Shown piece after piece: positions 5,823-42,943 of a DNA stretch of 64,000 bases (position 1 is the first letter of the stretch; every line of letters starts with the position of its first letter). Source of the stretch: an uncultured Acidobacteriota bacterium (GTDB lineage Bacteria; Acidobacteriota; Thermoanaerobaculia; UBA5066; Gp7-AA6); the NCBI GenBank assembly GCA_963773905.1, contig CAVZDB010000005.1:181624-245623 (forward strand). Direction: 5' to 3'. Under the pieces are notes generated by a model. It worked only from the letters and a program-made list of their open reading frames with translations, did no database searches and was not told the DNA's origin. A program made the translations under genes and the position numbers.

Positions 5823-5909
5823 GTCATCCCCAGCGGAAGCGATTGATCCCGTCACTGCCGCCATCTCGGCACGAACGCACGGGATCCTTCGCCTTCGGCT
5901 CAGGATGAC
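5823..5909. repeat. GTCATCC...GGATGAC palindromic repeat
   Basis: gtcatcccc...gatcccgtcactgcc...gaacgcacgggatccttcgccttcggctcaggatgac. Confidence 0.8.
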
Positions 5910-7064: not shown

Positions 7065-7156
7065 GTCATCCTGAGGAGCGAAGCGACAAAGGATCCCGTC
7101 ACTGCCAGCCTCATGGCTTGAACGCACGGGATCCTTCGCCTTCGGCTCAGGATGAC
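7065..7156. repeat. GTCATCC...GGATGAC palindromic repeat
   Basis: Closely matches the 5823-5909 copy, in the same orientation. Confidence 0.8.
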
Positions 7157-11158: not shown

Positions 11159-11186
11159 GGGGCCAGTCCTGATTTCTGATTTCGGG
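11159..11186 (+). repeat. GGGGTCA-family site (degenerate)
   Basis: ggggccagtcctgatttctgatttcggg versus ggggtcagtcctgatctctgaactcggg at 35282. Confidence 0.7.
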
Positions 11187-11246
11187 AGCTCCTCACGAGC
11201 AGACCAGGACCGACCCTCCCCTTCCGATGTCAACGACCTCTTCGGC

Positions 11247-13678: not shown

Positions 13679-13742
13679 GGGGAGACTGTAACCGGAGAAC
13701 GAGACGCAGGAATACGCGATTGACCTCGAGGGCGTGCCTAGA

Positions 13743-21931: not shown

Positions 21932-21952
21932 AGGACGATTCCTTTGGGCCTT

Positions 21953-21999
21953 GGGGTCAACGCTGAAAAACTGAATTCAGGGATTCAGCATTTGAACCC
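21953..21999. repeat. GGGGTCA-family inverted dimer (GGGGTCAACGCTGAA variant)
   Basis: ggggtcaacgctgaa...ttcagcatttgaaccc; similar copies at 26969 and 31118. Confidence 0.85.
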
Positions 22000-22021
22000 A
22001 TTCCTGTTTGGGGTCTACCGT

Positions 22022-22291
22022 CTACCGGCGTTTTCCGGTCGCGGGGGACTTGGCCTTCCTGGGCTGGGAGGCCGCTGCCTTCTCGACCGCCTTGGTGAGA
22101 CTCTCGGCGAGCTTCTGCGAGTCCTTGCTGGCACGGCCGAGCTCGCCCGCCGGAGCGGTCTCGCGCTTCCCGAGCACCCACTCCAGGGCGTAGGTCATCG
22201 CAGCGCCTTCCGCGATGTAGAAGCCGCTGAGCTCCTTGACGCGTTCGCGGATGGCCGACACCTGGCTCTTGATCTCGTTTTCGGATTTCAC
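22022..22291 (-). CDS. Small hypothetical protein, cassette A copy 1
   Basis: Near-identical to 27032-27310 at DNA and protein level. Confidence 0.75.
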   Translation of the reverse strand: MKSENEIKSQVSAIRERVKELSGFYIAEGAAMTYALEWVLGKRETAPAGELGRASKDSQKLAESLTKAVEKAAASQPRKAKSPATGKRR

Positions 22292-22326
22292 GGCAGGATC
22301 CTGACATAGGCGCGAGGCCCAGGGCA

Positions 22327-22340
22327 GGGGTCAGTCCTGA
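22327..22340 (+). repeat. GGGGTCAGTCCTGA site
   Basis: Exact core, 36 bp from the start codon of cassette A copy 1. Confidence 0.8.
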
Positions 22341-22530
22341 TCCCCAACCCGGCCTCAACAGACTCCTTTAGGCCTGGTGATGAATCGCTGATCGAAAAAC
22401 AGCTTGCCCGTGCCGACCCTGGGGCGTAGATCGGGGGATGGATTCACGAGAATGAGTCTCTACCCAACTGCCCGGCCTCCTGTTCCGCGAAAAATCAAGA
22501 CTGACCCCTACCCTCTCGAGGAGGCACGTC

Positions 22531-24576
22531 ATGCTCAAAGCGATCCCCCGCGTCCTCCCTCGCATTCTGGCTCTCGGCCTTGCGGTCGGCCTCGGACTCG
22601 TCACGCAGCCGGCCGCCGCGTCGGCCGGCGAATGGACCCCGATCGGGCCGACGGGCGTCGGCATGGTGACCGCCATCGCCGCCGGCCGCACCGCGATGTA
22701 CGCCGCGACGTGCGGCGGCGTGTACCGCTCCGACGACGGCGGCGCGAGCTGGCGCGAGACGGGACCCGCGCGCGCCTGCGTCGTCCGGCTCGCCGTGGAC
22801 CCGCGGCCGGACGCGGACACGCTCTATGCGATCGTCGACACGCACTTCTTCGTCTCCCCGCGTCCGGAGCCCAGCTTCATCGGATTGTCGGGACTCTTCG
22901 TGGAGTCCACGCTCTGGGTCTCCCGCGACGGCGGGCAGTCCTGGACGCAAACGTCGGTCTTCAGCGGCCATTCGGTCGCGGTCGATCTCAGTCAACCCGA
23001 GACCGCGTACGTGGCCAACTACGACCCGGCGTATGCCCCGCTGGAAGTGACCCACGACTCCGGAGCGACCTGGAGCCGCGTTGAGAACGCTCCGGACGCG
23101 ATCTTCGCCGAGATCGCATCGGATCCGCGCGACGGGACCCTCTACGGAGCAAGCGGATTTGGAGCAAGCGGATTTCTCAGCATCTATTCCGGGGGGTCAT
23201 GGTCCGCCCTCGCGATCCAGGTCATCAGCGTCGCAGCCGGCTCCGGCTCCGATGGCGCCGTCTACGCGGCGGGGTTCGAGAACTTCTGCCGCAAAACGAC
23301 CGCCGCGCCCTGGAGCTGCACCGGGCTTCCCGGAACCACGGTGATCCACATCGCCGAGATTCCTGCCTCGCAGACGCAGCCGGCGCGAATCCTCATCGGC
23401 ACCTTCCACGGCTTGATGTCGAGCAACGACGGCGGCGCGACCTTCTCGCCCGTGTCGTCCGTCCCCGCCGCCTTCCTCCCCGCGGCCGCCGTCGATTCCT
23501 CAGGGAGCATCGCCTACGTCGGGAACGACACCGGCGTCTACCGCAGCGCAGACCGCGGGGTGACCTGGACCAGCTCGAGCGCGGGCCTGAGCTCCACGTG
23601 GGTGCGGGCGCTGGCCGTCGACCCCTCCGACCCCTCCACGATCTGGGCCGGCGCGGAGAGCCGGATCTACGACGTCACCCAGGCCGGCGCGGGAATCTTC
23701 CGCTCGACCGACGGCGGCCAATCGTGGACCAGCGTCTCCGTGAACGGGGAGCCCGGATATGTCTTCAGCCTCGGCCTCGATCCGTCGAATCCACACAACC
23801 TCTACACCGGCTCCATCGGCAAAGTGGATCGCACATCCGACGGCGGCGTGAGCTGGTCGATCGCCCAGGCCTTGTCGAACTTCGTTTACGCGCTCGCGGT
23901 CGACCCCGACTCGTCTGAGGTGTGGGCGGGGTCCGACGGCTTCTTGACGAAGAGTACCGATGGCGGAGAGACCTGGTCGGTCGCCCTGTCCCAGAGCGTC
24001 TACTCCATCCTCTTCGACTCGCGGCATCCGGGGACGATCTACGCCGGCGCCGCGAGGGAGGACCAGGGCTCCTACTATCCCTTCGGATCCGGTTTCGCGG
24101 TCCAGACCAGCCGCGACGCCGGCGCCACGTGGAAGCGCGTCGGCACCGCGCAGGAGGGCGGGGTAACGGCGCTCGCAACCGATCCCTTCTCCGACAACGT
24201 CGTCTACGCCGGCACATACGCGGGGACGATCCTCCGCAGTCCCGATGCCGGCGCGACCTGGGAGCGGTGGGATTCGCACTACGACGGCTACTCGGTCTTC
24301 GCTCTCGTTGCCGATCCCGCGCGATCCGGCCAGCTCTACATCGGAGGCTGGAACGGCGTGTATCGCTCGCAGGACGGAGGCCGGTCCTGGGTCCTCTTCT
24401 CGGAGGGTCTCGAAACGTATGGCGTCTTCGGTCTCGCCATCACGCCCGACGGCGCGCGGCTCTACGCGGGTACGACCGGCGGCGGCGTGTACCGCCGCGA
24501 CCTCTTCACCGCCGAGCGCGAGCCCCCGAACCCCGTGAGCGCAACGCGTGGGGCTCGAATCGTCCTGCGGCCCTGA
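22531..24576 (+). CDS. Secreted Asp-box/BNR beta-propeller protein
   Basis: GAGGAGG RBS, signal peptide and repeated SxDGGxSW; paralog of 8344-10385. Confidence 0.88.
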   Translation: MLKAIPRVLPRILALGLAVGLGLVTQPAAASAGEWTPIGPTGVGMVTAIAAGRTAMYAATCGGVYRSDDGGASWRETGPARACVVRLAVDPRPDADTLYAIVDTHFFVSPRPEPSFIGLSGLFVESTLWVSRDGGQSWTQTSVFSGHSVAVDLSQPETAYVANYDPAYAPLEVTHDSGATWSRVENAPDAIFAEIASDPRDGTLYGASGFGASGFLSIYSGGSWSALAIQVISVAAGSGSDGAVYAAGFENFCRKTTAAPWSCTGLPGTTVIHIAEIPASQTQPARILIGTFHGLMSSNDGGATFSPVSSVPAAFLPAAAVDSSGSIAYVGNDTGVYRSADRGVTWTSSSAGLSSTWVRALAVDPSDPSTIWAGAESRIYDVTQAGAGIFRSTDGGQSWTSVSVNGEPGYVFSLGLDPSNPHNLYTGSIGKVDRTSDGGVSWSIAQALSNFVYALAVDPDSSEVWAGSDGFLTKSTDGGETWSVALSQSVYSILFDSRHPGTIYAGAAREDQGSYYPFGSGFAVQTSRDAGATWKRVGTAQEGGVTALATDPFSDNVVYAGTYAGTILRSPDAGATWERWDSHYDGYSVFALVADPARSGQLYIGGWNGVYRSQDGGRSWVLFSEGLETYGVFGLAITPDGARLYAGTTGGGVYRRDLFTAEREPPNPVSATRGARIVLRP

Positions 24577-25160: not shown

Positions 25161-25186
25161 AATACACGAATACACGATTGACTCCC
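25161..25186 (-). repeat. GGGGTCA-family site matching the RAYT terminal repeat
   Basis: aatacacgaatacacgattgactccc versus tacaggaatacacgattgacccc at 34984. Confidence 0.8.
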
Positions 25187-26770: not shown

Positions 26771-26968
26771 GTGCGCAGTCAATGCGCTGGCCACGTCTCT
26801 GTGATCTTCACGAAGCGACCTCGCGAGGGCGTCTGACCCGTGCACGTCGCCAACGTGCTTTCAACCAGTGTTTCGATGCCCTTCGCCACAGCCATGGCCG
26901 ACAGCATCACCCGGGATCAGACGGGTGGCTTCCATTGCAAAGGCCTCCGTTTGATCTGGTCGCGGCCT

Positions 26969-27016
26969 GGGGGTGAACGCTAAAAAGCTGAATTCAGGGG
27001 TTCAGCGTTTGAACCC
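26969..27016. repeat. GGGGTCA-family inverted dimer (AACGCTGAA variant)
   Basis: gggggtgaacgctaaaaagctgaattcaggggttcagcgtttgaaccc. Confidence 0.8.
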
Positions 27017-27031
27017 ATTCCTGTTCGGAGC

Positions 27032-27310
27032 CTACCGGCGTTTTCCGGCCGCGGGGGACTTGGCCTTTTTGGCCTTCTTGGCCTGGGAGGCCGCCGCCTT
27101 CTCGACCGCCTTGGTGAGACTCTCGACGAGCTTCTGCGAGTCCTTGCTGGCGCGGCCGAGCTCGCCCGCCGGAGCGGTCTCGCGCTTCCCGAGCACCCAC
27201 TCCAGGGCGTAGGTCATCGCGGCGCCTTCCGCGATGTAGAAGCCGCTGAGCTCCTTGACGCGCTCGCGGAGGGCCGACACCTGACCCTTGATCTCGGTCT
27301 CGGATTTCAC
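27032..27310 (-). CDS. Small hypothetical protein, cassette A copy 2
   Basis: MKSETEIKGQVSALRERVKELSGFYIAEGAAMTYALEWVLG. Confidence 0.75.
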   Translation of the reverse strand: MKSETEIKGQVSALRERVKELSGFYIAEGAAMTYALEWVLGKRETAPAGELGRASKDSQKLVESLTKAVEKAAASQAKKAKKAKSPAAGKRR

Positions 27311-27351
27311 GGCAGGATCCTGACACAGTCAGGACGGACGCCAGCTAGCCC

Positions 27352-28360: not shown

Positions 28361-28383
28361 ATCAAAGGATCAGGACTGAACCC
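28361..28383 (-). repeat. GGGGTCA-family site
   Basis: atcaaaggatcaggactgaaccc, 13 bp from the stop codon of the adjacent gene. Confidence 0.8.
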
Positions 28384-29123: not shown

Positions 29124-29143
29124 GTGGTCCTCCTTGGGGAGTC

Positions 29144-29548
29144 CTACTTCTTCAGGCTCGTCTTCCAGGTGCCGGTGTCGACGACCTTGCCCTTGTACAA
29201 CGTCTCGAACTTTCCCGAGAACGTCGGGCCGGCCTTCGTGCCCGTGATCCGGGAAGAGGCCTTGTGGCCCTTGACCTCGAAGTCGTAGGCGGCCTCGATG
29301 GAGTCGCCCTTCACGACGAGCGAGGTCACGGGGGATTTCGTTGGCTGCCCGTCCAGCACGGCGATGACTTCGCCGGTCCAGTTGCCGCCTGGGCCCGGGC
29401 TAAAAGTGAGTTGATAGCCGCCGCTCTTGCCTGCCTTATTGACGTATTCGCCGACGTACGTTCCGGCGATATCTTCCTCGGCGCGCACTACGACGGACAT
29501 CAGAATCAGGGCCGCGAGGGTAAGCACAATCGCAAGGTTTCGTCTCAT
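29144..29548 (-). CDS. Secreted hypothetical protein, cassette B copy 1
   Basis: Signal peptide; near-identical to 32939-33337. Confidence 0.75.
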   Translation of the reverse strand: MRRNLAIVLTLAALILMSVVVRAEEDIAGTYVGEYVNKAGKSGGYQLTFSPGPGGNWTGEVIAVLDGQPTKSPVTSLVVKGDSIEAAYDFEVKGHKASSRITGTKAGPTFSGKFETLYKGKVVDTGTWKTSLKK

Positions 29549-29924: not shown

Positions 29925-31089
29925 CGATCGCCCGCCTGGAAGTTAGTTCTCCTTGTTCTGGCTGAAGTTGACCTGGTACGGCTTCCCGCTCTGCGCGATG
30001 GCGAGGAGGCGGTGGCAGAGCTTGCGCGAGACGGCCACGATGGCGCGCTTCCCGCCGCGGCGAGCCTTAATCCTGTCGTAGAAGCGCCGCATCTCCGGGT
30101 CCTTGCCGATCAGGATCCAGGAGCTCTCCACGAGGACGCTGCGAACGACCGGGTTACCCTGGCGCGTGATGTGACCGTGGCGGATGCGCTCGCCGCTGGA
30201 ATGCTCGGAGGGAGTCAGGCCGGCGTAGGAGCTCAATGCCTCGCCGTCGGGGAAGCGGGAGAAGTCCACGATCTCCACGACCAGCGTAAGCGCCGTCAGC
30301 CAGCCGATCCCAGGAATGGTCGACAGCAGCTCCACCATCGGCGCGTAGTCTTCGGACCGGGTCATCTGGCGCAGCTCCTTTGTCAACGCATCCACGCGGG
30401 CGTCCAGATCGAAATAGATACCGCGCAGCTCCTCGAGCACGCGATCGAGCGAGCGATCGTCAAGCTTCAGCCCGCGCAGCCACGCCTCGAAGTCCCCGCT
30501 CCAGTGCGCGCCCGCCTCTTCGGGAATCTCGATGTCGTAGGTTAAAAAGAACGACTTGATCCGCACCATCGCCGCGCAGCGCTCCCGCTGCACCCGGTGG
30601 CGCTGGCGAACCAGCTCGCGATCTGCACGCTGCCGCACTTCCGGAACGAAGATCGGCCTCAGCAACCCGGCCTCCAGAGTCCGCGCCAGCTTAAGCCCGT
30701 CCCGACGATCCGTCTTCACCCGGTTGCCGATCTCCCCAGGCACGTGCGCCGCGGACACCACCATCGAATCCACCTGGCGCAATCGCAGCCAGTCGTGTAG
30801 CCAGTATCCAAACGGCCCCGTCTCGTACGCGCTGTGGACCCGACATCCCTCAAACCGAGCTAGCAGCCCGTTAAGCGCCTCTCGCCTAGGAGGGAAGCTC
30901 GCACTCAGCAGCGTCTCGCCTCCAGACCGAGCCGTCACGTGCCAGGACGTCTTCGAAATATCCAGCCCCAGAAACACCTCGGATCCGCTCGCCAACCTCA
31001 CTCCATCGCGCATGGCCCTCCTCCTCACCCTCAGAGTGCCACGCAAGCCTCCCTTCCTCCGCCCGTCAGCCACGGCCCTAACATAGCGG
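29925..31089 (-). mobile_element. IS110-family insertion sequence inserted within a GGGGTCA-family site
   Basis: Flanks ggtcagtct (29916-29924) and tgattctttgattttt (from 31091) rejoin into ggtcagtcttgattct, matching the reverse complement of the intact site at 36101-36121; no TIR or long TSD. Confidence 0.8.
29943..31013 (-). CDS. IS110 family transposase/recombinase (DEDD RuvC-like plus Tnp20 domain)
   Basis: FLGLDISK, YETGPFG, VKTDRRDG, TIPGIG and YAGLTPSEHSSG; GAGGAGG RBS before ATG 31013. Confidence 0.95.
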   Translation of the reverse strand: MRDGVRLASGSEVFLGLDISKTSWHVTARSGGETLLSASFPPRREALNGLLARFEGCRVHSAYETGPFGYWLHDWLRLRQVDSMVVSAAHVPGEIGNRVKTDRRDGLKLARTLEAGLLRPIFVPEVRQRADRELVRQRHRVQRERCAAMVRIKSFFLTYDIEIPEEAGAHWSGDFEAWLRGLKLDDRSLDRVLEELRGIYFDLDARVDALTKELRQMTRSEDYAPMVELLSTIPGIGWLTALTLVVEIVDFSRFPDGEALSSYAGLTPSEHSSGERIRHGHITRQGNPVVRSVLVESSWILIGKDPEMRRFYDRIKARRGGKRAIVAVSRKLCHRLLAIAQSGKPYQVNFSQNKEN

Positions 31090-31117: not shown

Positions 31118-31276
31118 GGGGTCAACGCTGAAAGGCTGAATCCAGGGATTCAGCGTGAACCCCATTCCTGCCCCATCGAATCAGATTCAGGGCTGACCCC
31201 AGCTAGCCCCAACCCGACAGCCGTGGTCAGCAGCGAATTCAACGTGGCGAACAATCAAAGAATCGGCACTGACCAC
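31118..31276. repeat. Cluster of GGGGTCA-family sites
   Basis: Dimer 31118-31163, then gaatcagattcagggctgacccc 31178-31200, then degenerate aatcaaagaatcggcactgacc 31253-31274. Confidence 0.8.
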
Positions 31277-32747: not shown

Positions 32748-32825
32748 CTCTCGACGAAGATCTACTACCCAACGTTCTTGCGATCGAGATGACTGAGGGA
32801 CATTTTACATGATTGGGCATTTGGC

Positions 32826-32890
32826 GGTCAGTCCTGATCTCTGATCTCGGGCTAGTTCGCAGAGCGCAATCAGAAATCAGGACTGAACCC
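32826..32890. repeat. GGGGTCA-family inverted dimer
   Basis: ggtcagtcctgatctctgat...atcagaaatcaggactgaaccc. Confidence 0.88.
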
Positions 32891-32938
32891 AATTAGCCCA
32901 AGAACAACCCACCCTGTGCTGCTCTCGACCCGTGAGTC

Positions 32939-33337
32939 CTACTTCTTCAGACTCGTCTTCCAGGTGCCGGTGTCGACGACCTTGCCCTTGTACAACGTCT
33001 CGAACTTTCCCGAGAACGTCGGGCCGGCCTTCGTGCTCGTGATCCGGGAAGAGGCCTTGTGGCCCTTGACCTCGAAGTCGTAGGCGGCCTCGATGGAGTC
33101 GCCCTTCACGGCGAGCGAGGTCATGGGGGATTTCGTTGGCTGCCCATCCAGCACGGCGATGACTTCGCCGGTCCAGTGGCCGCCTGGGCCCGGGGTGAAA
33201 GTGAGTTGATAGCCGCCGCTCTTGCCTGCCTTGTTGACCTACTCGCCGACGTACGTTCCGGCGATGTCTTCCTCGGCGAGCGCTGCGACGGACATCAGCA
33301 TCAGTGCCGACAGGGCAAATGCAAGGTTTCGTCTCAT
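32939..33337 (-). pseudogene. Cassette B copy 2 with an in-frame TAG
   Basis: Colinear with 29144-29548; the Tyr codon TAC is TAG at 33239-33241. Confidence 0.75.
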
Positions 33338-33368: not shown

Positions 33369-33390
33369 ATCAGAAATCAGGGCTGACCCC
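33369..33390 (-). repeat. GGGGTCA-family site
   Basis: atcagaaatcagggctgacccc. Confidence 0.85.
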
Positions 33391-33690: not shown

Positions 33691-33814
33691 AGATTGCTCC
33701 TTCGACGACAGCAGGAGGGCTGGCCCAATTGTGCGCCTCCCGCCGCTTCTCGGCAATCGGCTTTTGATTCCGATCCTAGAAATGCGGGGCGCCTTTCAGC
33801 GCCCCGGTGTGCGA

Positions 33815-33894
33815 GGGGTCAGTCCTGATTCCTGACTTTACGGTTCGGCCGGCCCGCGGGACGGTTCAGGCAATCAGGGATCAGGACCGAACCC
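33815..33894. repeat. GGGGTCA-family inverted dimer
   Basis: ggggtcagtcctgattcctga...aatcagggatcaggaccgaaccc. Confidence 0.85.
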
Positions 33895-33939
33895 ACCTTC
33901 CCGCCTGGTCGCCGCCTTGCAGTCTTAATGCAATGATCC

Positions 33940-35006
33940 GGGGTCAATCGTGTATTCCTGTATTTCCCGCTTCGAAGAGGCAAGCCAGGCGGTCGACGTG
34001 ACCGCGAACTGAGTCGTCTCGCGTCATCAACTTCTCGAGCCTGGTCAGACCGCGGTGAAACGTCGACTCCTCGCGCCTGAAGCATCTCGCCATCCGGGCA
34101 ATCGAGAATCCCTCACGACAACCGAGATACGCAGCGATCAGCCGGGTCCGTGAGGCCGCCGAAGACTTTCCGGCCCGCCTCAGCTCTTCCAGGGAGAAGC
34201 CCTCCGCCTTGGCGACCGCATCGGCCAGGCTCTCAGGGGTCCACCCGCTGGGAAGTCGGACGGTCTCCCCCACGATCGCCATGGATCGCTGGACGAACTC
34301 CGGATCTCCCTTGACTGGGAAGCCGCCGGCGACGTCGTCGTAGGACTGCTGGTCGCGGTCTCCCATCATTCGCCGGTAGGCCGCCGCGGCCCCCCTCCGA
34401 TCCGACGCGAGTCGCCCCATCGCGACGTCCAGATCCAGCCAGTCTGGGCCACGTCCGCTTCGGTAGTAGCGATCGCTCGACCACGAGTACGACTCGGGCC
34501 GACTCACCATCCCGGCTCGGACCGGGTTGAGGTGGATGTATCGAAGCAGCGCGAAGAGGTACTTCTCATCTTGAATGAGAAAGGCCTTGTACCGCCCTTG
34601 GAAGAGATGGCCCGATCGCCGGTGCTTCGAGTTGAAACGCTGTGCGTAGAACGAATGCAGCGCCAGCATCGCGCGAGAGAGCGGAAACGGTCCACGCTCC
34701 ACCGCCACGTGAATGTGGTTGCTCATCAGGCAGTACGCCAGGATACGAAGCCGGAATCTCTCCCGGCACTCCGCAAGCCGCTCGAGGTAGATCTCACGAT
34801 CCCGGTCGTCGCGAAAGATGGCCTTGCGTTCGTTGCCGCGGGCAATCACATGGTAGACCGCCCCGGTGAGCTCAACCCGAAACGGCCGCGCCAACGACAC
34901 CTCCGCAGACACCGAGATCCTCTCCCTGCGTCTATCTAAGGTTGTCGCGAACGGTCACGCCCGCGGCGCGGCGAGCGAAGAATTACAGGAATACACGATT
35001 GACCCC
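33940..35006 (-). mobile_element. RAYT-like Y1 transposase unit bounded by perfect 23-bp inverted repeats
   Basis: ggggtcaatcgtgtattcctgta (33940-33962) and tacaggaatacacgattgacccc (34984-35006). Confidence 0.85.
33944..34894 (-). CDS. REP-associated tyrosine transposase-like Y1 HUH nuclease with C-terminal DnaA-C-like helical domain
   Basis: ARPFRVE..GAVYHVIARGNERKAIF, HUH motif YCLMSNHIH, GHLFQGRYKA, catalytic RYIHLNPVRAG and YSWSS; the stop codon lies in the left IR. Confidence 0.9.
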   Translation of the reverse strand: MARPFRVELTGAVYHVIARGNERKAIFRDDRDREIYLERLAECRERFRLRILAYCLMSNHIHVAVERGPFPLSRAMLALHSFYAQRFNSKHRRSGHLFQGRYKAFLIQDEKYLFALLRYIHLNPVRAGMVSRPESYSWSSDRYYRSGRGPDWLDLDVAMGRLASDRRGAAAAYRRMMGDRDQQSYDDVAGGFPVKGDPEFVQRSMAIVGETVRLPSGWTPESLADAVAKAEGFSLEELRRAGKSSAASRTRLIAAYLGCREGFSIARMARCFRREESTFHRGLTRLEKLMTRDDSVRGHVDRLACLFEAGNTGIHD

Positions 35007-35029
35007 TTAGAGCTCTTAGAGCTTCTCGA

Positions 35030-35224
35030 TCACGGCGTCGTCCGAGTGATCCGGGATCTCGAGAAGCGTGAGACAGGGCTTCTGAACCGCTTTCTCTCGT
35101 TTGCGGCTTTCGCGATTCGTCGCGTCTCCCACACGTACCACCCCAAACCAAACAGGGTAAGGATCCCGAGCACCGTGCTCACAACATGAAAGGAGGCATC
35201 TGTCATAGAGAGACAGGCAATCAA
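35030..35224 (-). other. Probable gene fragment (one TM helix) between sites
   Basis: VLGILTLFGLGWYVWETRRIAKA; short, bounded by sites at 35006 and 35282. Confidence 0.4.
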
Positions 35225-35281
35225 ATCACGAAGTCAGCACCGATCGGACCCAGAGCAGTACCAGACTAACCCCGGGACTCT

Positions 35282-35348
35282 GGGGTCAGTCCTGATCTCT
35301 GAACTCGGGCTGCTTCGGAGGGCGAAGTCAGAAATCAGGACTGACCCC
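35282..35348. repeat. GGGGTCA-family inverted dimer (best-conserved copy)
   Basis: ggggtcagtcctgatctctga...tcagaaatcaggactgacccc. Confidence 0.9.
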
Positions 35349-35394
35349 GATTAGCCGCCGAGGCCACGCCGGCGGCGCAGCGGCGGGACAAATG

Positions 35395-35412
35395 GGAATA
35401 CACGATTGACCC
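35395..35412 (-). repeat. Further copy of the RAYT terminal repeat
   Basis: ggaatacacgattgaccc, 16 bp from the stop codon at 35428. Confidence 0.85.
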
Positions 35413-35427
35413 GCTGGAGCTCCGCGA

Positions 35428-35985
35428 TCAGTAGTCCTTCGTCGTCATTGTGATTCGGAGTCGCGTCGTCGGCTGGAGCGATGCCGCGGGTAGAGACCAT
35501 GTCACCTGTTCTTGCTGGCCCTCGCCATTGTCGGGCGCCTTGAACTGCACAATCTCCGACTTCACCGACTCCTCCCCGTTCACTGCGTCGAGCCTCACGC
35601 TGACCATCTTGTCGTGGTTGTGCTTAGGGTTCTGTACCGCGACCTCCATCTCGACTTGGACTTGCCCGCCTGGGAGATCCTTGACGCGCATCCGGATGCC
35701 GGGGTCCCACTGCTTCTTGCGATCAAGGTCTGACCGGAAGAAGACTCCGTCACAGGAGAACTTGCCGAGCTCCCACCATTCGTGCAGGGTGAACCAGCTC
35801 CCGGAGCTCCCGGCCGGCCACTTTACCCGATCGCCGGCGGCAAAATCGGTCTCGAGAACCATCGGTGAATGAAAGGCGTTCGCGTCGACCGGCGTCGAGG
35901 CCTCCGATCCCTGTTTAGCCACGACCTGGGCGCCGGAAGTCGACGCCAATGTCAAAATCCACAATGAAATCAGCGCTATTCTCAT
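35428..35985 (-). CDS. Secreted hypothetical protein
   Basis: Signal peptide MRIALISLWILTLASTSGA; GGAG upstream. Confidence 0.75.
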   Translation of the reverse strand: MRIALISLWILTLASTSGAQVVAKQGSEASTPVDANAFHSPMVLETDFAAGDRVKWPAGSSGSWFTLHEWWELGKFSCDGVFFRSDLDRKKQWDPGIRMRVKDLPGGQVQVEMEVAVQNPKHNHDKMVSVRLDAVNGEESVKSEIVQFKAPDNGEGQQEQVTWSLPAASLQPTTRLRITMTTKDY

Positions 35986-36021
35986 AACTTCTCTCCATCA
36001 GCCGGATCGGAACGGCTCGAA

Positions 36022-36121
36022 GTCAGTCCTGATTGTCTGCAGATCGAAAAAGCAAAGAATCAGTACCAACTCCTTTCTCGACCCCATTTCTACCCGGAAA
36101 AGCAAGAATCAAGACTGACCC
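36022..36121. repeat. GGGGTCA-family sites (degenerate dimer)
   Basis: gtcagtcctgatt (36022) ... agcaagaatcaagactgaccc (36101-36121). Confidence 0.75.
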
Positions 36122-36143
36122 TCCACAAACCCATCGGAGCTAC

Positions 36144-37058
36144 TCAGCTCTCATCGAAATAATCCGAATCCAGGCGCTTCACTTGATACGTCCGAGCTTG
36201 TGAAACACCAATCTCAAAGTCGATCATGAGTTCGGCCAACCGACGCCCATCGATTAAAGCGACCTTGGGATCGATGTGCTCCACGTAGGCGAGTGCTTCC
36301 GCCGAAAATGACCCGGTCGTGATGAAGACGCCCTTCTTCGCGCGTTTGCCGTGCAGAGCACCCACAAACTTGTGGATTTCGGGGCGGCCCACCGTTCCGT
36401 CCCACCGCTTCGCCTGGAGGTAGACCACGTCGAGGCCAAGCCGATCCTCGCTGATGACGCCATCGATCCCTTCATCCCCCGACTTACCGATAGCCTGTCC
36501 AGCGTCCTTCCGCGAGCCCCCGTAGCCCATCTTCAGCAGCAACTCGACCACCAGTTCCTCGAAGAACGAAGGCGATGCCGCCTTCACGCGGGCGATGACT
36601 TCTGCTGCGAGACCTGCTCTGATCCTTGCGTGGGCCGCCTCAAGGGCTTCTTCCGGTGTTTCAGTTTCCTCTTGCGACGTCGCGCTCATGCCAGGCGTCG
36701 CTTCCTCTTGAGACCGGGCCGTCCTGAACTCGACAAACTCCGGATATCGATCGAGAAACTTGATGTCGACTCGGGTGGGAGGATTCTTGAGGACCTCCCG
36801 ACCTCTCTCGGTCAGCTGGAAGTGGCCGCGTCGCGGTGGAGCTGAGGAGCCCGGCTTGCTGAAGGTAGCTTCTCGCCCAAGCGACGCGATTCGCAAATCT
36901 GGTCTGCCGCCCGCTCGGAAGAAGCTCTTCCTTGTCGTCAGGAGTCAGCTGAACTCAACCGCGAGGGCGTTGGCCGCCGCAGCCAATGAATGGGCTTCGC
37001 CGTCGGCGGCAATTTGTAGGAGGGGCAGCATGAATGATTGGAAGTCAGGCACAGTCAT
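36144..37058 (-). CDS. mrr: Mrr type IV restriction endonuclease, frameshifted at about 36850-36960
   Basis: N-terminal MTVPDFQSFMLPLL and LLPSGRQ; C-terminal FFEELVVELL, SGDEGIDG, YLQAKRW and KGVFITT. Confidence 0.9.
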
Positions 37059-37124: not shown

Positions 37125-37147
37125 TTCAGAGACTCAGGACTGACCCC
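37125..37147 (-). repeat. GGGGTCA-family site
   Basis: ttcagagactcaggactgacccc. Confidence 0.85.
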
Positions 37148-37171
37148 ACTCCTGCCGAACTAACGTTGCGC

Positions 37172-37459
37172 TTAGGGGCCAGGCAAGTTAACCCATTGAC
37201 CCGAAAACCGCTCATACCAAAGCTTCCGTACTTCTCTTTTGAGATCCCGATCGGTGAGTTTGCGGTAGTCGAGGTGGACTTCGATAATCAGGTCTCCGCC
37301 CATGTGAAGCGCGGAAGCCTCTTCGCTAGTCAGAATGACCGTCTTCATGAGCGGCGCGTCCATCCCATCGCCGATCATTAGGGATTTATTTTGAGGGACG
37401 ACCTCATCTTCTGGGGTCGATGACCGGCCCTCCAGAGTGATGACCGAGTAGGCATTCAC
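37172..37459 (-). CDS. Hypothetical protein; probably extends upstream through frameshifts
   Basis: Lower-GC ORF whose stop is 25 bp from a site; no recognisable motif. Confidence 0.4.
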   Translation of the reverse strand: MNAYSVITLEGRSSTPEDEVVPQNKSLMIGDGMDAPLMKTVILTSEEASALHMGGDLIIEVHLDYRKLTDRDLKREVRKLWYERFSGQWVNLPGP

Positions 37460-37991
37460 GTTGAGGGCTACCGACGTTCCGACGTTGCGGACGTGCGGCA
37501 GCAGGTTAATGGGGCCCGCCAGCCAACTGCCTTCCTAGCGACGGCGCCTCAACCATGAACTCGGGACTCTGAAGCGCCTGAGAGACGTGGAGAGTTCTGT
37601 CTGCTATTAACCAAGCTGCGACAACCGCGAAAATACGCGGCTCCCAGGGTAAGCTGAGCGATTGTTAGAGTTCGCCTGGCTACAACAAGGCTACTCTCAG
37701 CAATCTCAACCGACCTGTCGGCGATACCGTTCGCGCGGCGCGCGAGTTCGTTCGCGTCGCGTGTAAGCGGAAGACGATTGCTTTCCGCTAAAAGATGCGC
37801 GTGCAGGACTTCGAGGCTTGCGCTTCCCCCACATGGTGCGCGCTACGTTTTCGAACCGGGAGACGATTAGGTCGAAGCTCTTCTCGCCAGGGCCGCGTCA
37901 AACCTCGCTTTCATCTCGCCCAGGCGTTCGGTGACTTGTCGGGTTTCAGAGTCTGCGCGTAACGGGGCGCGTGTACGCTAGATCCTGAGCT

Positions 37992-38315
37992 TCAAGGCTT
38001 CTTCTCCTGCAAGGGTGTTGACTCACAAGAATAAGCCTCTCCAGATGCGTGAATGCCTGATGCGACGACGAATACAACATTTCCTCCCAAGTCCGCGGTC
38101 TTGTTTTGAAGTGTCTTCTCGGTGTTCGAGAGCCCGCCAGGCCGGTTCCTGCCGAGCCACCCCATCCCGAAGTCGCCTTGACATTCCCCAGGAACTTGCA
38201 ACCCTTGACAACGTCAGGGTTGCTCGTGACGCGCGCTGCTTTCACCCGCGGGAGTTGTCGACACGCAGGCATTGAATGTCAGCATCGCGACAGCCGTTAG
38301 GATCCTCGAGCTCAT
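37992..38315 (-). CDS. DUF4156-like lipoprotein, frameshifted
   Basis: MSSRILTAVAMLTFNAC lipobox; VKGCKFLGNV...LQNKTADLGGNVV...GEAYSC. Confidence 0.7.
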
Positions 38316-38583
38316 GCCAAGCAGCTCCTTTCGGTGGCCCGCCTCGCAGATGGAGATCGCCAGATTTCAACTCAAGAGTGCGGGGCGCTTTTCGGCGCCC
38401 GCATCGGCCTCAAAAAGCGGCCCCACCCCTTTGAAAACTGGTTTGCAATTCCTACCCTACCGCAAAACCCTCCCGAAGGATCCTGCACGAAAGTGCAGGT
38501 CCGTCATGCCGGCTCCAGGGACGGGATCGGCTCGGAGAGGTCGGGATTCTGGATGACAGGCGTGACGACGATGGGCGCGGAGC

Positions 38584-38788
38584 GGGCGGGCGCGAGGCCC
38601 GCCCCTACGGTTTCGGGGATGGAATCAACGGCGGAAAGCGAGGGAGAAGAAGAGTGCAGCGTGGCGTGGTTGGGGTCCGCCGTGGCGGGCGGACGCGAAT
38701 GGACGGGCACCGAGAGGGCGGGCGCGAGGCCCGCCCCTACGGTCGTGGCGGCGACAGGACGACGGGCGGGGGCAAGCCCCGCCCCTGC
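38584..38788 (-). repeat. Three GTAG-type REP palindromes
   Basis: gggcgggcgcgaggcccgcccctac at 38584 and 38716, variant at 38764; the minus strand reads GTAG plus a GC hairpin. Confidence 0.85.
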
Positions 38789-38811: not shown

Positions 38812-41629
38812 CTAGCTGCATCCTGACGTCGCGCCGCAGTTCATGCACTTGTAGCAGGCCGCGGACCTGACCATGATCGAGCCGCACTCGTGGCACGCGG
38901 GCGCGTCCGTGCTCGTCTCGAAGAGCAGCTTGCTGACGATTTCGCCGCTGGCCTGGCGCGCCGCCACGGTGCGCTCGATGACGGGCACCGGGCCCGTCGA
39001 GCTCGTGTCCCGCGCGATCACGCCCACCGCGTTCTTCTCCTCGGCGCTCATGAACTTGCTCGCCAGCCACTTGAAGATGTAGTCGATCAGCGACTTCGCG
39101 ATCGGGACCTCCGGGTTCTTCGTGAAGCCCGCGGGCTCGAACCGCACGTGGGTGAACTTGTTGACCAGGGCCTCCAGCGGCACGCCGTACTGGAGGGTCA
39201 GCGAGATCGCCGTCGCGAACGCGTCCATGAGGCCCGAGATCGTCGAGCCCTCCTTGGACATCCGCAGGAAGATCTCGCCGGGCTTGCCGTCCTCGAACAG
39301 GCCCACCGTCACGTAGCCCTCGTGGCCCGCGACCGAGAACTTGTGGGTGATCGAGCGGCGCTCGTCGGGGAGCTTGCGGCGGAACGGCGCCGGGACCGGG
39401 GCCGCGGCCTTGCCGACGTACTCGAGCGTGCCGCGGGCGACCGGGGACTTGGTGTCGCTCTTCGAAGCCGCCGTGTTCAGCGGCTGCGTGCGCTTGCAGC
39501 CGTCGCGGTAGATCGCGATGGCCTTCAGGCCCTGCTTCCAGCCTTCCATGTAGACGCCCGCGATCTCCTCGGGCGTGGCGTCCGGCGGCAGGTTGACGGT
39601 CTTGCTGATCGCGCCGGAGAGGAACGGCTGCGTCGCCGCCATCATCTTGACGTGGCCCATGTAGTGGATCGAGCGGGTGCCGTTCAGCGCGCGGAACGCG
39701 CAGTCGAACACCGGCAGGTGCTCCTGCAGGAAGTTCGGCGCGCCCTCGATCGTGCCCTTCTCGTCGACGTAGTCGACAATTTCATTGATTGCGTCGGTGG
39801 AATATCCCAGGCGCTTCAGCGCCAGCGGCACGGTCTGATTGACGATCTTGATCGTCCCGCCGCCCACGAGCTTCTTGTACTTGACGAGCGCGAGGTCCGG
39901 CTCGACGCCGGTCGTGTCGCAATCCATCATGAAGCCGATCGTGCCGGTCGGCGCGAGCACCGTGACCTGGCCGTTCTTGTAGCCGTGCTCCTTGCCGGTC
40001 TCGAGCGCCGCGTCCCACACCGCCTTCTGCGCCTTGTGGAGCTCGGCCGGAACGCCGCGCGCGGGAACCTGCGCGGCGGCGTCGCGGTGCATGCCGATGA
40101 CCTCGAGGAACGCGTCGCGGTTGGGGGCGTAGCCCGTGAAGGGCTCGAGCTCCGCCGCGACCCTGGAGGACTGCAGGTACGCCTCGCCGCACATCAGGGA
40201 AGTAATCGCGGCGGCGTGGGCACGACCTTCGTCTGAGTCATAGGGAACCCCCGCCGCCATCAAGAGAGCCCCGAGGTTCGCGTAGCCGAAGCCGAGCGGG
40301 CGGAACTTGTGCGAGTTCGCCGCGATCGCCGGCGTCGGGTAGGAGCAGTTGTCGACCAGCATCTCCTGCGCCGTGATGACGACGTCGCACGCGTGCTTGA
40401 AGGTCGGCACGTCGAAGCTGCCGTCCTCGGCGTTGAAGAACTTCATGAGGTTCAGCGACGCGAGGTTGCAGGCGGAGTCGTCGACGAACATGTACTCCGA
40501 GCACGGATTGCTCGCGTTGATGCGGTGCGTCGCCTTCACCGGGTTCCAGCGGTTGATGGTCGTGTCGTACTGCATGCCCGGATCGCCGCAGACCCACGCG
40601 GAGTCGGCGATGTCGGCCATGAGCTGACGCGCCTTGAAGGTCTTGTACGGCTGGCCGGTCAGGACCTCCTTGGTCTGCCACTCGCCGTCCTTCTCGACCG
40701 CCTCCATGAACTCGTCGGTGACGCGGATCGGAGTGGTTGGCGTTCTGGTAGAAGATCGACGCGTACGCCTCGCCGTTGAAGCTGCCGTCGTAGCCGGCGT
40801 CGATCAGCGCCCAGGCCTTCTTCTCCTCGTTCGCCTTCGAGCAGATGAACTCCTCGATGTCGGGATGGTCGATGTTCAAGATGACCATCTTGGCCGCGCG
40901 GCGCGTCTTGCCGCCCGACTTGATCGCGCCCGCGAAGGAGTCGAAGCCCTTCATGAACGAGAGCGGGCCGGAGGCGGTGCCGCCGGAGGACAGGCTCTCG
41001 TGCGCGCCGCGAAGGTTCGAGAGGTTGCTGCCCGTGCCCGAGCCGTACTTGAACAGCATGCCCTCGGTCTTGGCGAGCGAGAGGATCGAGTCCATCGAGT
41101 CGCCGCACGAATTGATGAAGCAGGCCGAGCCCTGCGGCTTCGGCTCGATGCCGACGTTGAACCAGACGGGTGAGTTGAAGGAGGCGACCTGGTTGACGAG
41201 GATCGCCGCGAGCTCGTCGTGGAACGCGTCGCGGTCCGCGGCGGTCTTGAAGTAGCCGCCCTTCTCGCCGTAGGCGGTGATGGTTCCGGCCACGCGCTCG
41301 ATGAGCTGCCGCACCGAGCTCTCGCGCTCGGGGGTCCCGACGCGCCCGTGGAAATACTTCTGAACGACGATGTTCGTGGCGGTCTGCGACCAGCTCTTCG
41401 GGACCTCGACGTTCTTCTGCTCGAAGATCGTCTCGCCCTTCTCGGACATGATCGCGGCCGTCCGAAGCTCCCACTCGATCGCGTCGTAGGGCGAAACCGA
41501 GGGGTCCGAATACACGCGTGTGAACGTCAGTCCCTTGAGGCCCCCCTGGCTTCCCTGAAGGGTCTGCCGGGACGTCTCACGCCGTTCCTCCCCGATCGCC
41601 CTCTCCACCCCTTTTTCCGTCGAGCTCAT
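38812..41629 (-). CDS. nrdJ: Class II (adenosylcobalamin-dependent) ribonucleotide reductase, frameshift near 40730
   Basis: FNSPVWFN, SACFI, SGGKTRRAAKM, SNPCSEY, LAPTGTI, YRDG and a C-terminal zinc ribbon (CHEC/CMNC). Confidence 0.95.
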
Positions 41630-42852: not shown

Positions 42853-42943
42853 GTCATCCTGAGCGAAGCGAAGGATCCCGGACTCGATTGCCGGCGCGGC
42901 TAGAAAGCACGGGATCCTTCGTCGCTGCGCTCCTCAGGATGAC
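42853..42943. repeat. GTCATCC...GGATGAC palindromic repeat
   Basis: gtcatcctgagcgaagcgaaggatcccg...cgggatccttcgtcgctgcgctcctcaggatgac. Confidence 0.85.

Follow-up and report, generated by a model that had tools for sequence, protein, structure and literature searches.

The window, the whole 64-kb stretch of DNA that was analysed (64,000 nucleotides), contains a transposase gene enclosed by two copies of one repeat. GGGGTCAATCGTGTATTCCTGTA occurs at 33940-33962 on the plus strand and at 34984-35006 on the minus strand with 0 mismatches, and at 25163-25185 on the minus strand with 2; these 3 window matches at ≤3 mismatches compare with 0.00 expected from 100 shuffles. Together, the gene and its two terminal inverted repeats (TIRs) make up a unit of 1,067 bp, in which the perfect 23-bp inverted repeat extends to 27 nt at 96% complementarity. 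The unit and the other copies of its repeat, designated family C, are as follows.

33944..34912, minus strand: TIRYT gene; longest ORF 322 aa, start GTG at 34912
34984..35006, minus strand: upstream (5′) TIR, family C; head 94 nt ahead of GTG 34912
33940..33962, plus strand: downstream (3′) TIR, family C; inner part codes for the last six residues, NTGIHD
35383..35413, minus strand: solo family-C unit; 87% complementary to 33941-33970 across 30 nt
25163..25185, minus strand: solo family-C unit; 2 mismatches of 23; between convergent ORFs
13704..13727, minus strand: weak family-C-like unit of uncertain membership; 4 of 23 positions differ; overlaps mechanical ORFs

The ORF ends at a TGA (33944-33946) that is also the TGA of TGACCCC, the head of the 3′ TIR. 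Read along the minus strand, the 5′ TIR has, in order, the head GGGGTCA, the four bases ATCG and a tandem pair of boxes, TGTATT-cc-TGTA(A)T. The initial annotation had described a perfect 23-bp repeat around the gene with the stop codon inside its left copy, both confirmed here at 0 mismatches, and further single copies at 25161-25186 and 35395-35412, which we recovered as the minus-strand units at 25163-25185 and 35383-35413. It had also stated that the ends are neither hairpins of the IS200/IS605 type nor GTAG REPs; this stands because single arms do not fold (0 kcal/mol, with all 200 shuffles folding at least equally well), and they contain no GTAG. The true start codon of the gene is likely TTG 34894, which is preceded by GGAGG and would give a protein of 316 aa; we favour it from the sequence because aligned homologues begin MARPLRLE.

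The protein has an N-terminal RAYT-like Y1/HUH nuclease domain, a helical middle and a C-terminal helix-turn-helix (HTH) resembling DnaA domain IV (~residues 225-316). The HUH motif lies at H66/H68 and the catalytic tyrosine at Y125, and all three residues are invariant among 18 homologues. Pfam Y1_Tnp was matched with an E value of 6e-14 (52.7 bits, cut-off 23) and NCBIfam REP_Tyr_transpos with 86.1 bits (cut-off 80), and the NCBIfam IS200 model NF033573 gave 19.3 bits against a cut-off of 55. The single sequence matched Pfam Bac_DnaA_C at E 0.014, under the cut-off; a profile of the 18 homologues matched DnaA domain IV (3pvp) at E 1.5e-9 and TnpA_REP (4er8) at E 1e-3. An AF2 model (pLDDT 86.7; below 50 at residues 317-322) had 4er8_A as its best structural match in Foldseek (TMt 0.73), and also retrieved the DNA-binding domains of DnaA (3pvp_B, TMt 0.86, rmsd 1.6 Å; 1j1v, TMt 0.85) and IS200/IS605 transposases (PDB 2vjv, 2xma; E 3e-4 to 1e-3). 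A homodimer prediction for the transposase scored 0.00 (mark 0.42), which speaks neither for nor against a dimer. These Pfam, NCBIfam, profile and Foldseek matches bear out the annotation of a Y1 transposase with a C-terminal helical domain, and mark the protein as a RAYT-like nuclease-ligase of the HUH/Y1, single-strand DNA type to which a DnaA-domain-IV-like HTH is joined. The gene is single-copy, with one match above cut-off in an assembly that is 82% complete.

A class with these properties is already in print. Di Nocera, De Gregorio & Rocco (2013, BMC Genomics 14:522, PMC3733652) described TIRYTs and TIRtrons with GGGGWSAS-headed TIRs and, in the portion of the paper available, named an Acidobacteria group as the most sharply defined. 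Like the resident gene, members are RAYT-like tyrosine transposase genes with long terminal inverted repeats unrelated to GTAG REPs; their repeats may overlap the 3′ end of the gene, and repeat families of moderate size, present as singles, dimers and groups, are frequent and not obligatory (PMC3733652). Quentin, Siguier, Chandler & Fichant (2018, BMC Genomics 19:475, PMC6006769) distinguished a TnpA_REP subclass 2.1.2 with Bac_DnaA_C and equated subclass 2.1 with TIRYTs, giving the consensus GGGG[AT][CG]A[CG]; in the part accessible, the role of the HTH is left open and the head is considered unlike a DnaA box. The resident protein resembles that subclass in its length, in combining a Y1/HUH domain with a Bac_DnaA_C-like HTH at the C-terminus and in having no REP-like hairpins beside its gene.

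At the locus we find a Y1 domain with HUH and tyrosine, non-GTAG TIRs, a GGGGWSAS-type head and related repeats elsewhere, as in TIRYTs; the C-terminal similarity to Bac_DnaA_C is clear in the profile (E 1.5e-9) and the fold (TM 0.86) and weak in the single sequence. The resident head, GGGGTCAA, fits GGGGWSAS at 7 of 8 positions, differing from the class in having A rather than S as its eighth base. What had been annotated as an atypical recognition site is the published GGGGWSAS-headed TIR of TIRYT/TIRtrons (PMC3733652, PMC6006769, as far as these texts were available). We assign the resident gene to the TIRYT class with high confidence; it is an ordinary member of a described class and not a new kind of element.

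More distant systems share parts of this design. Classical RAYTs with their REPs and BIMEs, and REPIN-RAYT systems (E. coli TnpA_REP, 4er8; PMC3479197, PMC3116915), have the same catalytic fold and a single-copy gene, flanked in inverted orientation by its own repeats, which also form hairpin doublets. In contrast to them, the resident arms lack GTAG and do not fold alone, the protein is twice as long and carries a DNA-binding domain, and there are ~25 local units rather than a population of tens to hundreds dispersed over the genome. IS200/IS605 elements (IS608, ISDra2; 2vjv, 2xma) have the HUH/Y1 fold and, presumably, the same single-stranded DNA chemistry, but they are multi-copy and bear subterminal imperfect hairpins on one strand, whereas the resident unit is single-copy with terminal inverted repeats. 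The C-terminal ~95 residues superimpose on DnaA domain IV (3pvp, 1j1v) with an rmsd of 1.6-1.7 Å, a TM of 0.85-0.86 and 17-28% identity. In DnaA, however, this domain is fused to an AAA+ initiator and here to a nuclease, and GRDHTTV of DnaA aligns with RREESTF, a stretch that varies among lineages.

Terminal repeats of TIRYT homologues

The TIRYT class comprises at least 589 confirmed matches across many phyla, of which the best 80 are listed. Among 119 homologue loci with a gene match, 105 had adequate flanks and were usable. An inverted repeat flanked the gene in 89 of these, and in 83 GGGTCA (≤1 mismatch) stood at the outer end of both arms; 6 had a repeat without the head on both arms, and 16 had no flanking repeat. 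Every one of the 20 loci from genomes of the same order, counting the window's own, has GGGGTCA-headed inverted repeats on its flanks. Left and right arms are ≥75% identical up to ~position 23 and reach background by ~position 28. In 45 of the 89 loci the gene stops at the TGA of the head, and the upstream arm lies a median of 63 nt ahead of the start codon.

The consensus of the 89 homologue TIRs is GGGGTCAGG.CT. Position 8 is G in 71 of 89 left arms, and the head of most relatives is GGGGTCAG. This head is near-universal (GGGGTCA, usually GGGGTCAGGyCT), and the tail that follows is lineage-specific. Tandem 6-nt boxes with a period of 7-9 were perfect (6/6) in 25 of 77 registered TIRs and matched at ≥5/6 positions in 58; shuffled tails gave 1.5 ± 1.3 (maximum 8, 200 shuffles) and outside flanks 4 of 76. 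The TIR is bipartite, with a conserved head followed usually by two tandem 6-nt boxes 7-9 nt apart. When tails were placed on the protein tree, 41 label changes were required, compared with 53-59 in 200 shuffles, and families A, B and C (A and B are described below) each occupied one clade. Two expectations of the initial annotation, a GGGGTCA inverted repeat conserved in homologues and bases after the head that vary with protein phylogeny, agree with the counts of 83 in 105 loci and 41 changes.

Head distance tracked the N-terminal domain (rho 0.44) and not the C-terminal domain (0.10). Given the N domain, tail distance tracked the C domain with a partial correlation of 0.15, reached by 0 of 500 permutations; the reverse partial was 0.08 and was reached by 14 of 500. 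These domain-to-repeat correlations are weak and confounded by shared descent. It is conceivable, and we propose it tentatively from the sequence comparisons, that recognition is itself bipartite, with head and boxes read separately. In this proposal the target of the HTH would be the variable tail and not the head considered in the subclass 2.1.2 paper, and its basis is weakly correlative. Next to the head, on its outer side, positions -2/-1 lean only weakly towards A-T, 30 and 39 of 76 having T at -1, and therefore no cleavage site can be read off.

The placement of the upstream arm, a median of 63 nt before the start codon, is that of a promoter or operator, and the protein has a DnaA-type duplex-DNA-binding domain. 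On these grounds the inverted repeats might be operator or terminator sites only, at which the HTH autoregulates its gene with no DNA processing. We consider this very unlikely: the repeat is also found, inverted, at the 3′ end in 83 of 105 loci, solo and dimer copies lie away from any TIRYT gene, and the HUH and Tyr catalytic residues are invariant. A scan of 33700-35500 for a sigma-70-like promoter or an intrinsic terminator, weak for this phylum, to which the consensus may not apply, detected neither.

Families A and B and the GTAG REPs

Two further repeat families lie around the gene. The 15-mer GGGGTCAGTCCTGAT has 22 window matches at ≤3 mismatches, compared with 1.9 expected and 5 in the largest shuffle. 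Members of families A and B in the window are listed below.

35282..35348: family-A dimer (GGGGTCAGTCCTGAT..), 67 bp; hairpin -23.2 kcal/mol; not cognate to the resident gene
33815..33894: family-A dimer, 80 bp; right arm degenerate
32824..32890: family-A dimer, 67 bp; palindrome reaches outward to 32813-32901
11159..11217: family-A pair; right arm degenerate
22327..22508: family-A inverted pair; arms 152 nt apart
36019..36122: degenerate family-A inverted pair
14618, plus strand: solo family-A unit
26746, plus strand: solo family-A unit
28369-28383, minus strand: solo family-A unit
31186-31200, minus strand: solo family-A unit
33376-33390, minus strand: solo family-A unit
37133-37147, minus strand: solo family-A unit
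21953..22001: family-B dimer (GGGGTCAACGCTGAA..); arms abut; hairpin -11.4 kcal/mol; just 3′ of small ORF 22022-22291 (minus strand)
26970..27018: family-B dimer; copy of the 21953 dimer within a duplicated module (dimer plus small ORF)
31118..31165: family-B dimer; hairpin -14.7 kcal/mol

All five dimers previously annotated as having GGGGTCA...TGACCCC polarity (21953, 31118, 32826, 33815 and 35282) are present, the third at 32824/32826. As single-stranded DNA the dimers fold at -11.4 to -23.2 kcal/mol (z -2.8 to -7.2). Genome-wide searches at ≤5 mismatches of 21-23 nt returned 6 units of family C (of 23 nt, both TIRs included), 16 of A and 3 of B, with 0-1 in reversed controls, and 20 of these 25 units lie inside the 64-kb window (1.5% of the assembly). 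GGGGTCA itself occurs 356 times in the genome, a raw count not above a rough composition-based estimate. The earlier picture of an autonomous element with a REPIN-like population was overstated, given a genome with ~25 units, 20 of them in one window.

That picture also held the short dimers to be internally deleted derivatives of the unit, so that the gene-carrying unit would be an autonomous master and the dimers its own MITE-like progeny, all mobilized by the resident enzyme. The dimers do share an identical head, polarity and head-plus-two-boxes build, they lie near the gene, and no other TIRYT gene was found in the assembly. However, the arms of the dimers have only the 7-nt head and the general build in common with the gene's repeat, and their tails (GTCCTGAT.. 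and ACGCTGAA..) are unlike the gene's tail ATCGTGTATTCC and match the TIRs of other paralogues. Family A flanks the TIRYT paralogues L007, L009, L107 and L109, and family B flanks L024 and L110; these genes, in congeners, encode proteins of 44-48% identity and belong to separate clades. In three congeners (G023, G007 and G017) the orthologous island has an A-type TIRYT gene with A-type repeats clustered about it. We rejected the A and B dimers as derivatives of the resident element on the match of their tails to other paralogues' TIRs in congeners, and regard the master-element reading as improbable.

A tblastn search of this genome with the resident protein returned only the gene itself, classical RAYT pieces on contig C4 and chance-level matches, with no A- or B-type TIRYT remnant. 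An A- or B-type cognate gene may be unassembled, since the assembly is only 82% complete, and this weighs against taking the resident gene as sole master. As judged from their tails, the dimers of families A and B belong to other TIRYT paralogues; in congeners these genes are present in the orthologous island, which adjoins a ribonucleotide reductase (RNR) gene, and they were not found in this assembly. Without a cognate gene here, the two families are either relics or served by the resident enzyme, and the latter would weaken the idea of one tail per paralogue.

The genome also contains classical REPs, with GTAG plus a GC hairpin. At ≤4 mismatches there are 126, on 8 of 9 contigs, compared with 1 in the reversed control, and three lie in the window at 38584-38788; the count at ≤6 mismatches (185 versus 79 in the reversed control) and that of the 8-mer GTAGGGGC (235 in the genome) are uninformative. 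This abundance, together with the NCBIfam name of the resident protein, REP-associated tyrosine transposase, raises the prospect that the enzyme is the RAYT of the GTAG REPs, the GGGGTCA repeats being incidental. We find this hardly credible. A separate, short classical RAYT, split over two frames, lies at 574783-575174 on the minus strand of contig C4 (G000:C4:574783-575174) with GTAG REPs on both sides, and GGGGTCA arms surround TIRYT genes in 83 of 105 homologue loci, genomes from many phyla included. The initial annotation had allowed that the resident enzyme might instead act on the GTAG REPs; these surround a frame-broken RAYT of their own.

C-type units elsewhere and the RNR-adjacent island

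The C-type unit is present in four genomes, in four different genomic contexts. Across the four units the arms are identical at 23-27 of 27 positions (85-100%), the gene DNA is 60-69% identical and the spacer 40-56%, and the outside flanks are unrelated. This gradient suggests, at the level of sequence comparison, that the arms are under selection. In this genome the orthologues of the flanks of the three other units (L003, L005 and L022) are located on contigs C4, C2 and C6, and not beside the resident gene. In a search for empty sites, these flanks matched this genome only ~150-770 nt from the TIRs, so no clean empty site or target sequence can be defined. No excision junction, target duplication or second identical copy was found, and the gene is single-copy in the assembly. 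From the comparison of contexts we think that the unit probably is, or was, mobile.

The surrounding region is a repeat-rich island that adjoins the same RNR gene in five congeners. A-type repeats cluster beside this gene in all five, and the gene content of the island differs among congeners save for a few genes. Between 21.9 and 37.2 kb of the window the mechanically called ORFs leave 17 gaps, 12 of which hold repeat units; ~13 consecutive ORFs lie on one strand, and the GC content of the island is 0.57-0.63 compared with 0.69 for the genome. ORF orientation is mixed in the congeners' islands. The module of family-B dimer plus small ORF is duplicated, and one boundary of the duplication falls at the dimer's head.

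Several of these observations would fit a domesticated system, in which the TIRYT no longer moves DNA, gene and repeats are inherited vertically, the repeats are host structural or regulatory elements of the island (for example RNA hairpins or protein-binding sites) and the enzyme only maintains or homogenizes them. The gene is single-copy, repeat numbers are low with 20 of 25 units in one window, and units fill 12 of the 17 ORF gaps; that five congeners have A-type repeats clustered at the same RNR gene suggests that these have long stayed in one place. RAYTs in general are described as having a housekeeping-like distribution (PMC5581495, in the portion available). Against domestication, the C-type unit occupies four contexts in four genomes, the gene content of the island varies among congeners, and both catalytic motifs are intact and invariant; Group 1 RAYTs (Bertels) are described as having the most IS-like traits among RAYT groups (PMC5581495), which would count here if TIRYTs correspond to that group. 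We judge domestication to be unlikely, though less so than the operator, master-element and GTAG-RAYT readings.

On balance we favour the reading that the locus is a TIRtron, a single-gene unit composed of a TIRYT gene and two terminal inverted repeats, and would explain its behaviour as follows. On single-stranded DNA, such as the lagging-strand template, both arms of a unit would pair, in the short dimers and the gene-carrying unit alike. The HUH domain would cut beside the conserved head and the C-terminal HTH would read the lineage-specific boxes, in which case each paralogue would have its own repeat family. The enzyme could in this way excise or copy TIR-bounded segments at a low rate. 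By our reasoning, a spacing of 7-9 nt between boxes does not readily accommodate two HTH domains bound to the same face of duplex DNA. The literature searched, parts of which were available, reports no experiment on the TIRYT/TIRtron class, and the accessible text of PMC3733652 makes no mention of a tandem-box tail, an island beside one housekeeping gene or orphan families of absent paralogues.

A more far-reaching scheme would turn the island into an integron analogue, a platform on which single-strand HUH/Y1 enzymes handle cassettes. TIR dimers would be hairpin-forming boundary sites for the capture, duplication and exchange of genes, and the DnaA-like HTH of each TIRYT paralogue would direct it to a boundary family of its own. 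The duplicated module with a boundary at the dimer's head, the shared RNR neighbour with otherwise mostly variable gene content, the units in 12 of the 17 ORF gaps, the run of ORFs on one strand and the lower GC content are the observations to which it would apply. We hold it to be a long shot: the rearrangements could have come from an IS110 element and plain segmental duplication, ORFs point both ways in the congeners' islands, and no junctions were seen. An integron-type reading with a tyrosine recombinase is retained only as part of this improbable scheme.

Should the head-plus-two-box build hold, along with the trend linking head to N domain and tail to C domain, the TIRtron would provide a testable model of how a HUH nuclease gains sequence addressing from an added duplex-binding domain. 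The island of the five genomes lends itself to comparisons of whether repeats of this kind are mobile, stay where they are or shape a variable region. Public sequencing data for 33700-35500 list no RNA set; the segment is represented only in three soil-metagenome contig sets from one study, each with 0.06-0.07 of the sampled words.

The resident TIRYT and the domain make-up of its protein

The resident TIRYT, a RAYT-like Y1/HUH transposase gene, and the copies of its repeat are as follows.

33940-33962 (+), 23-mer GGGGTCAATCGTGTATTCCTGTA, left terminal inverted repeat (TIR)
33944-34912 (-), single ORF between the arms, 322 aa
34984-35006 (-), perfect inverted copy of the 23-mer, right TIR
25163-25185, third copy of the 23-mer, with two mismatches

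Matches to this 23-mer expected by chance in the window number none, and when extended the inverted repeat covers 27 nt at 96% complementarity. The TGA stop of the gene is the TGA of the GGGGTCA head read on the opposite strand, and the last six codons (NTGIHD) therefore fall inside the repeat. The initial annotation had described a Y1 transposase gene enclosed by a perfect 23-bp inverted repeat that contains its stop codon, and this observation was confirmed. Because homologues begin MARPLRLE, the sequence suggests that the real start is TTG 34894, behind GGAGG, giving a protein of 316 aa.

The resident protein matched Pfam Y1_Tnp (E = 6e-14) and, below threshold, Bac_DnaA_C. It exceeded the cut-off of the NCBIfam REP-associated tyrosine transposase model (86.1 bits vs 80) and failed that of the IS200 model (19.3 vs 55). 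A profile of 18 homologues matched DnaA domain IV structures over positions 229-321 (3pvp, E = 1.5e-9) and also matched E. coli TnpA_REP (4er8, E = 1e-3). The AlphaFold2 model (pLDDT 86.7; residues 1-9 and 317-322 below 50) found its best structural match in 4er8_A (TM to target 0.73), and aligned with the DNA-binding domains of DnaA at TM 0.86 (3pvp_B) and 0.85 (1j1v_A), with an rmsd of 1.6-1.7 Å. The HUH motif (H66, H68) and Y125 are invariant across the homologue alignment. The repeat-encoded tail of the protein is predicted to be disordered, which would fit with the DNA element, and not the protein, setting the sequence of this tail.

Di Nocera et al. 2013 (PMC3733652) coined the names TIRYT and TIRtron (gene plus both TIRs) for RAYT-like genes with long terminal inverted repeats. 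They reported that the repeats have a GGGGWSAS motif in common and can overlap the gene at its 3′ end, that related repeat families are moderate in size and occur as singles, dimers or groups, and that the Acidobacteria group is sharply defined. Quentin et al. 2018 (PMC6006769) assigned TIRYTs to TnpA_REP subclass 2.1, with a Bac_DnaA_C-like C-terminus as a trait of subgroup 2.1.2, and left the role of this domain open. Our literature search found no use of either term beyond these two papers, and nothing newer. The resident locus is a further member of this known, widespread and experimentally untouched class.

The bipartite repeat is conserved and co-varies with the protein

We searched 41 genomes for the gene (that of the window and 40 relatives), with matches in 25. 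Inverted repeats starting GGGGTCA flank every one of the 20 loci fetched, counting that of the window, and at 12 of these loci the head's TGA serves as stop codon. Scanning of species-representative genomes confirmed at least 589 relatives; the best 80 of these come from many phyla, the closest among the 80 being Thermoanaerobaculia MAGs. Across everything fetched, 119 loci contained a gene match, and 105 were usable, with adequate flanks and a near-full-length gene. A flanking inverted repeat was present in 89 of the 105 and absent in 16; GGGTCA (≤1 mismatch) occupied the outer end of both arms in 83, and in the other 6 the repeat was present without the head on both arms. The expectation in the initial annotation that homologues would carry a conserved GGGGTCA repeat in their flanks was borne out. 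The 89 distinct cases gave the TIR consensus GGGGTCAGG.CT. Identity between left and right arms is at least 75% up to about position 23 and reaches background by about position 28, and the upstream head lies a median of 63 nt from the start codon.

Behind the head, the tail usually consists of two tandem 6-nt boxes, 7-9 nt apart (TGTATT-cc-TGTATT in the resident gene). Of 77 well-registered TIRs, 25 have an exact (6/6) box duplication and 58 have one of at least 5/6; the controls gave 1.5 ± 1.3 for shuffled tails (maximum 8 in 200 shuffles) and 4/76 for DNA just outside the head. We found no mention of a two-box tail in the text passages of PMC3733652 and PMC6006769 compared. Single arms fold at 0 kcal/mol and dimers form long hairpins; in lacking secondary structure, single TIR arms differ from REPs and from IS200/IS605 ends.

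The C-type tail, that of the resident gene, is common to four genes (resident, L003, L005 and L022). Their arms are identical at 23-27 of 27 positions, the non-coding upstream arm likewise, compared with 60-69% identity for coding DNA, 40-56% for the arm-to-start spacer and unrelated DNA outside. In a protein phylogeny of 75 genes that omitted the last 10 residues, the 6 bases after the head require 41 changes vs 53-59 in 200 label shuffles, in line with the co-variation with protein phylogeny that had been predicted. The three families of GGGGTCA-headed repeats in the window, A, B and C, each correspond to a clade, all within one well-supported 13-member clade. Head distance correlated with the N-terminal domain (rho 0.44) and not with the C-terminal domain (0.10). 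For tail distance and the C-terminal domain the partial correlation was 0.15 (reached by 0/500 permutations), and the reverse partial was 0.08 (14/500). These correlations are weak, and shared descent confounds them; we regard a head/N-domain and tail/C-domain correspondence as a lead, not a result.

HUH/Y1 enzymes such as IS608, ISDra2 and TnpA_REP act on single-stranded DNA. From this chemistry we infer a scheme in which the two arms of a unit would base-pair in the single-stranded state, cleavage by the HUH domain would occur beside the head, and the DnaA-like domain would read the boxes, whether in the stem so formed or in double-stranded DNA. The two-box tail and the conservation of the arms far beyond that of the gene are candidate additions of moderate specialist interest, as are the orphan repeat families of absent paralogues and the conserved repeat island next to ribonucleotide reductase (RNR).

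Repeat families, dimers and the RNR-adjacent island

GGGGTCA-headed repeat families, told apart by their tails. Counts are units at ≤5 mismatches of 21-23 nt: genome-wide / within the window / reversed-pattern control.
Family A; GGGGTCAGTCCTGAT..; dimers at 32824, 33815 and 35282, several solo units; 16 / 12 / 1
Family B; GGGGTCAACGCTGAA..; dimers at 21953, 26970 and 31118; 3 / 3 / 0
Family C; TIRs 33940-33962 and 34984-35006, solo units 25163-25185 and 35383-35413, weak unit 13704-13727; 6 / 5 / 0

In congeners, the A sequence forms the TIRs of paralogues L007, L009, L107 and L109, and the B sequence those of L024 and L110; the proteins of these paralogues are 44-48% identical to the resident protein. 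The initial annotation, which read the locus as an autonomous Y1 element with the short dimers as its internally deleted derivatives, was right in part. Its derivative status for the dimers was rejected, as families A and B are TIRs of other paralogues. No second TIRYT gene or remnant was detected in the window's assembly (82% complete), which contains one TIRYT only. One B dimer, together with a small ORF of 89/92 aa belonging to no known family, is duplicated (21947-22310 and 26964-27330). The copies lie 5 kb apart and are about 95% identical, with one boundary within about 6 nt of the outer head of the dimer and the other at the 5′ end of the ORF.

The window makes up 1.5% of the assembly; it was not chosen blind, and the enrichment of units within it is therefore descriptive only. 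Between 21.9 and 37.2 kb, units are present in 12 of the 17 intervals that separate mechanically called ORFs, and GC is 0.57-0.63 vs 0.69 for the genome. In three congeners (G023, G007 and G017) A-type units are packed no more than 10-15 kb from an A-type TIRYT gene, and a fourth, G006, has a comparable cluster, whose fetched 20-kb stretch contains no TIRYT gene. All five stretches adjoin the same RNR gene (84-98% protein identity) and have a few small genes in common, their remaining content being different; the RNR-adjacent stretch is therefore an orthologous, variable island where TIR repeats persist or accumulate. The C-type unit occurs in different contexts: in the genomes of L003, L005 and L022 it lies elsewhere, beside genes whose orthologues map to contigs C4, C2 and C6 of the window's genome, which argues that the unit has moved.

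Other features of the island and its surroundings are listed below.

29139-29438 and 32934-33233, 97%-identical 300-bp copies holding a 134-aa ORF and its truncated 71-aa copy
29943-31073 (-), IS110-family transposase gene (Transposase_20 and DEDD_Tnp_IS110), within the island and between the 300-bp copies
36144-36896 (-), gene for an Mrr-type restriction endonuclease (Mrr_cat, E = 3e-36), two genes away from the TIRYT and within the low-GC stretch
37150-38500, 1.3 kb between island and GTAG REPs, GC about 0.58, without any long ORF showing the codon bias of the genome; it resembles decayed or foreign DNA

A homologue of the 134-aa ORF adjoins an A-type TIRtron in G023. G006 carries another TIR family (GGGTCAACCGTGCGTT..), seven units of which crowd a 1.2-kb segment inside the RNR-adjacent island (L126, G006:C1:1753100-1754400); their cognate TIRYT gene, L106, is on another contig.

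GTAG REPs and other repeats

Three classical REPs with GTAG and a GC hairpin (reverse complement GTAGGGGCGGGCCTCGCGCCCGCCC, and a variant) are located at 38584-38788, just 3′ of the RNR gene (38812-40707, -). This family is dispersed and unrelated to the GGGGTCA repeats, with 126 copies at ≤4 mismatches spread over 8 of 9 contigs; the reversed control has 1. A separate, short classical RAYT lies at G000:C4:574783-575174 (-) in the window's genome (region 574636-575320), split between two reading frames, with one of the pieces containing a stop; NCBIfam REP_Tyr_transpos matches it piecewise, at positions 8-68, where a TAG occurs, and at 94-146. This RAYT has GTAG REPs on either side, and the TIRYT is therefore unnecessary to explain them. 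This RAYT is likely the partner, possibly a dead one, of the 126 REPs, its frame break being either real or an assembly error. The alternative that the resident enzyme acts on the GTAG REPs instead is thus disfavored, these REPs having their own RAYT.

A small repeat family with CACGGGATCCTTCG, unrelated to the TIRs, has two direct copies (89% identity) and one palindromic copy among 5845-5909, 7092-7156 and 42869-42921. BNR/Asp-box (sortilin-like) paralogues at 8440-10350 and 22633-24541, about 71-82% identical in DNA and 14.19 kb apart, account for direct repeats D2, D4-D7, D13 and D15. G040, a genome of the same order and another family, has 17 matches on many contigs, 25-38% identical to the query and mostly 326-aa open frames, which look like a multi-copy IS200-like element, unlike the low-copy TIRYTs.
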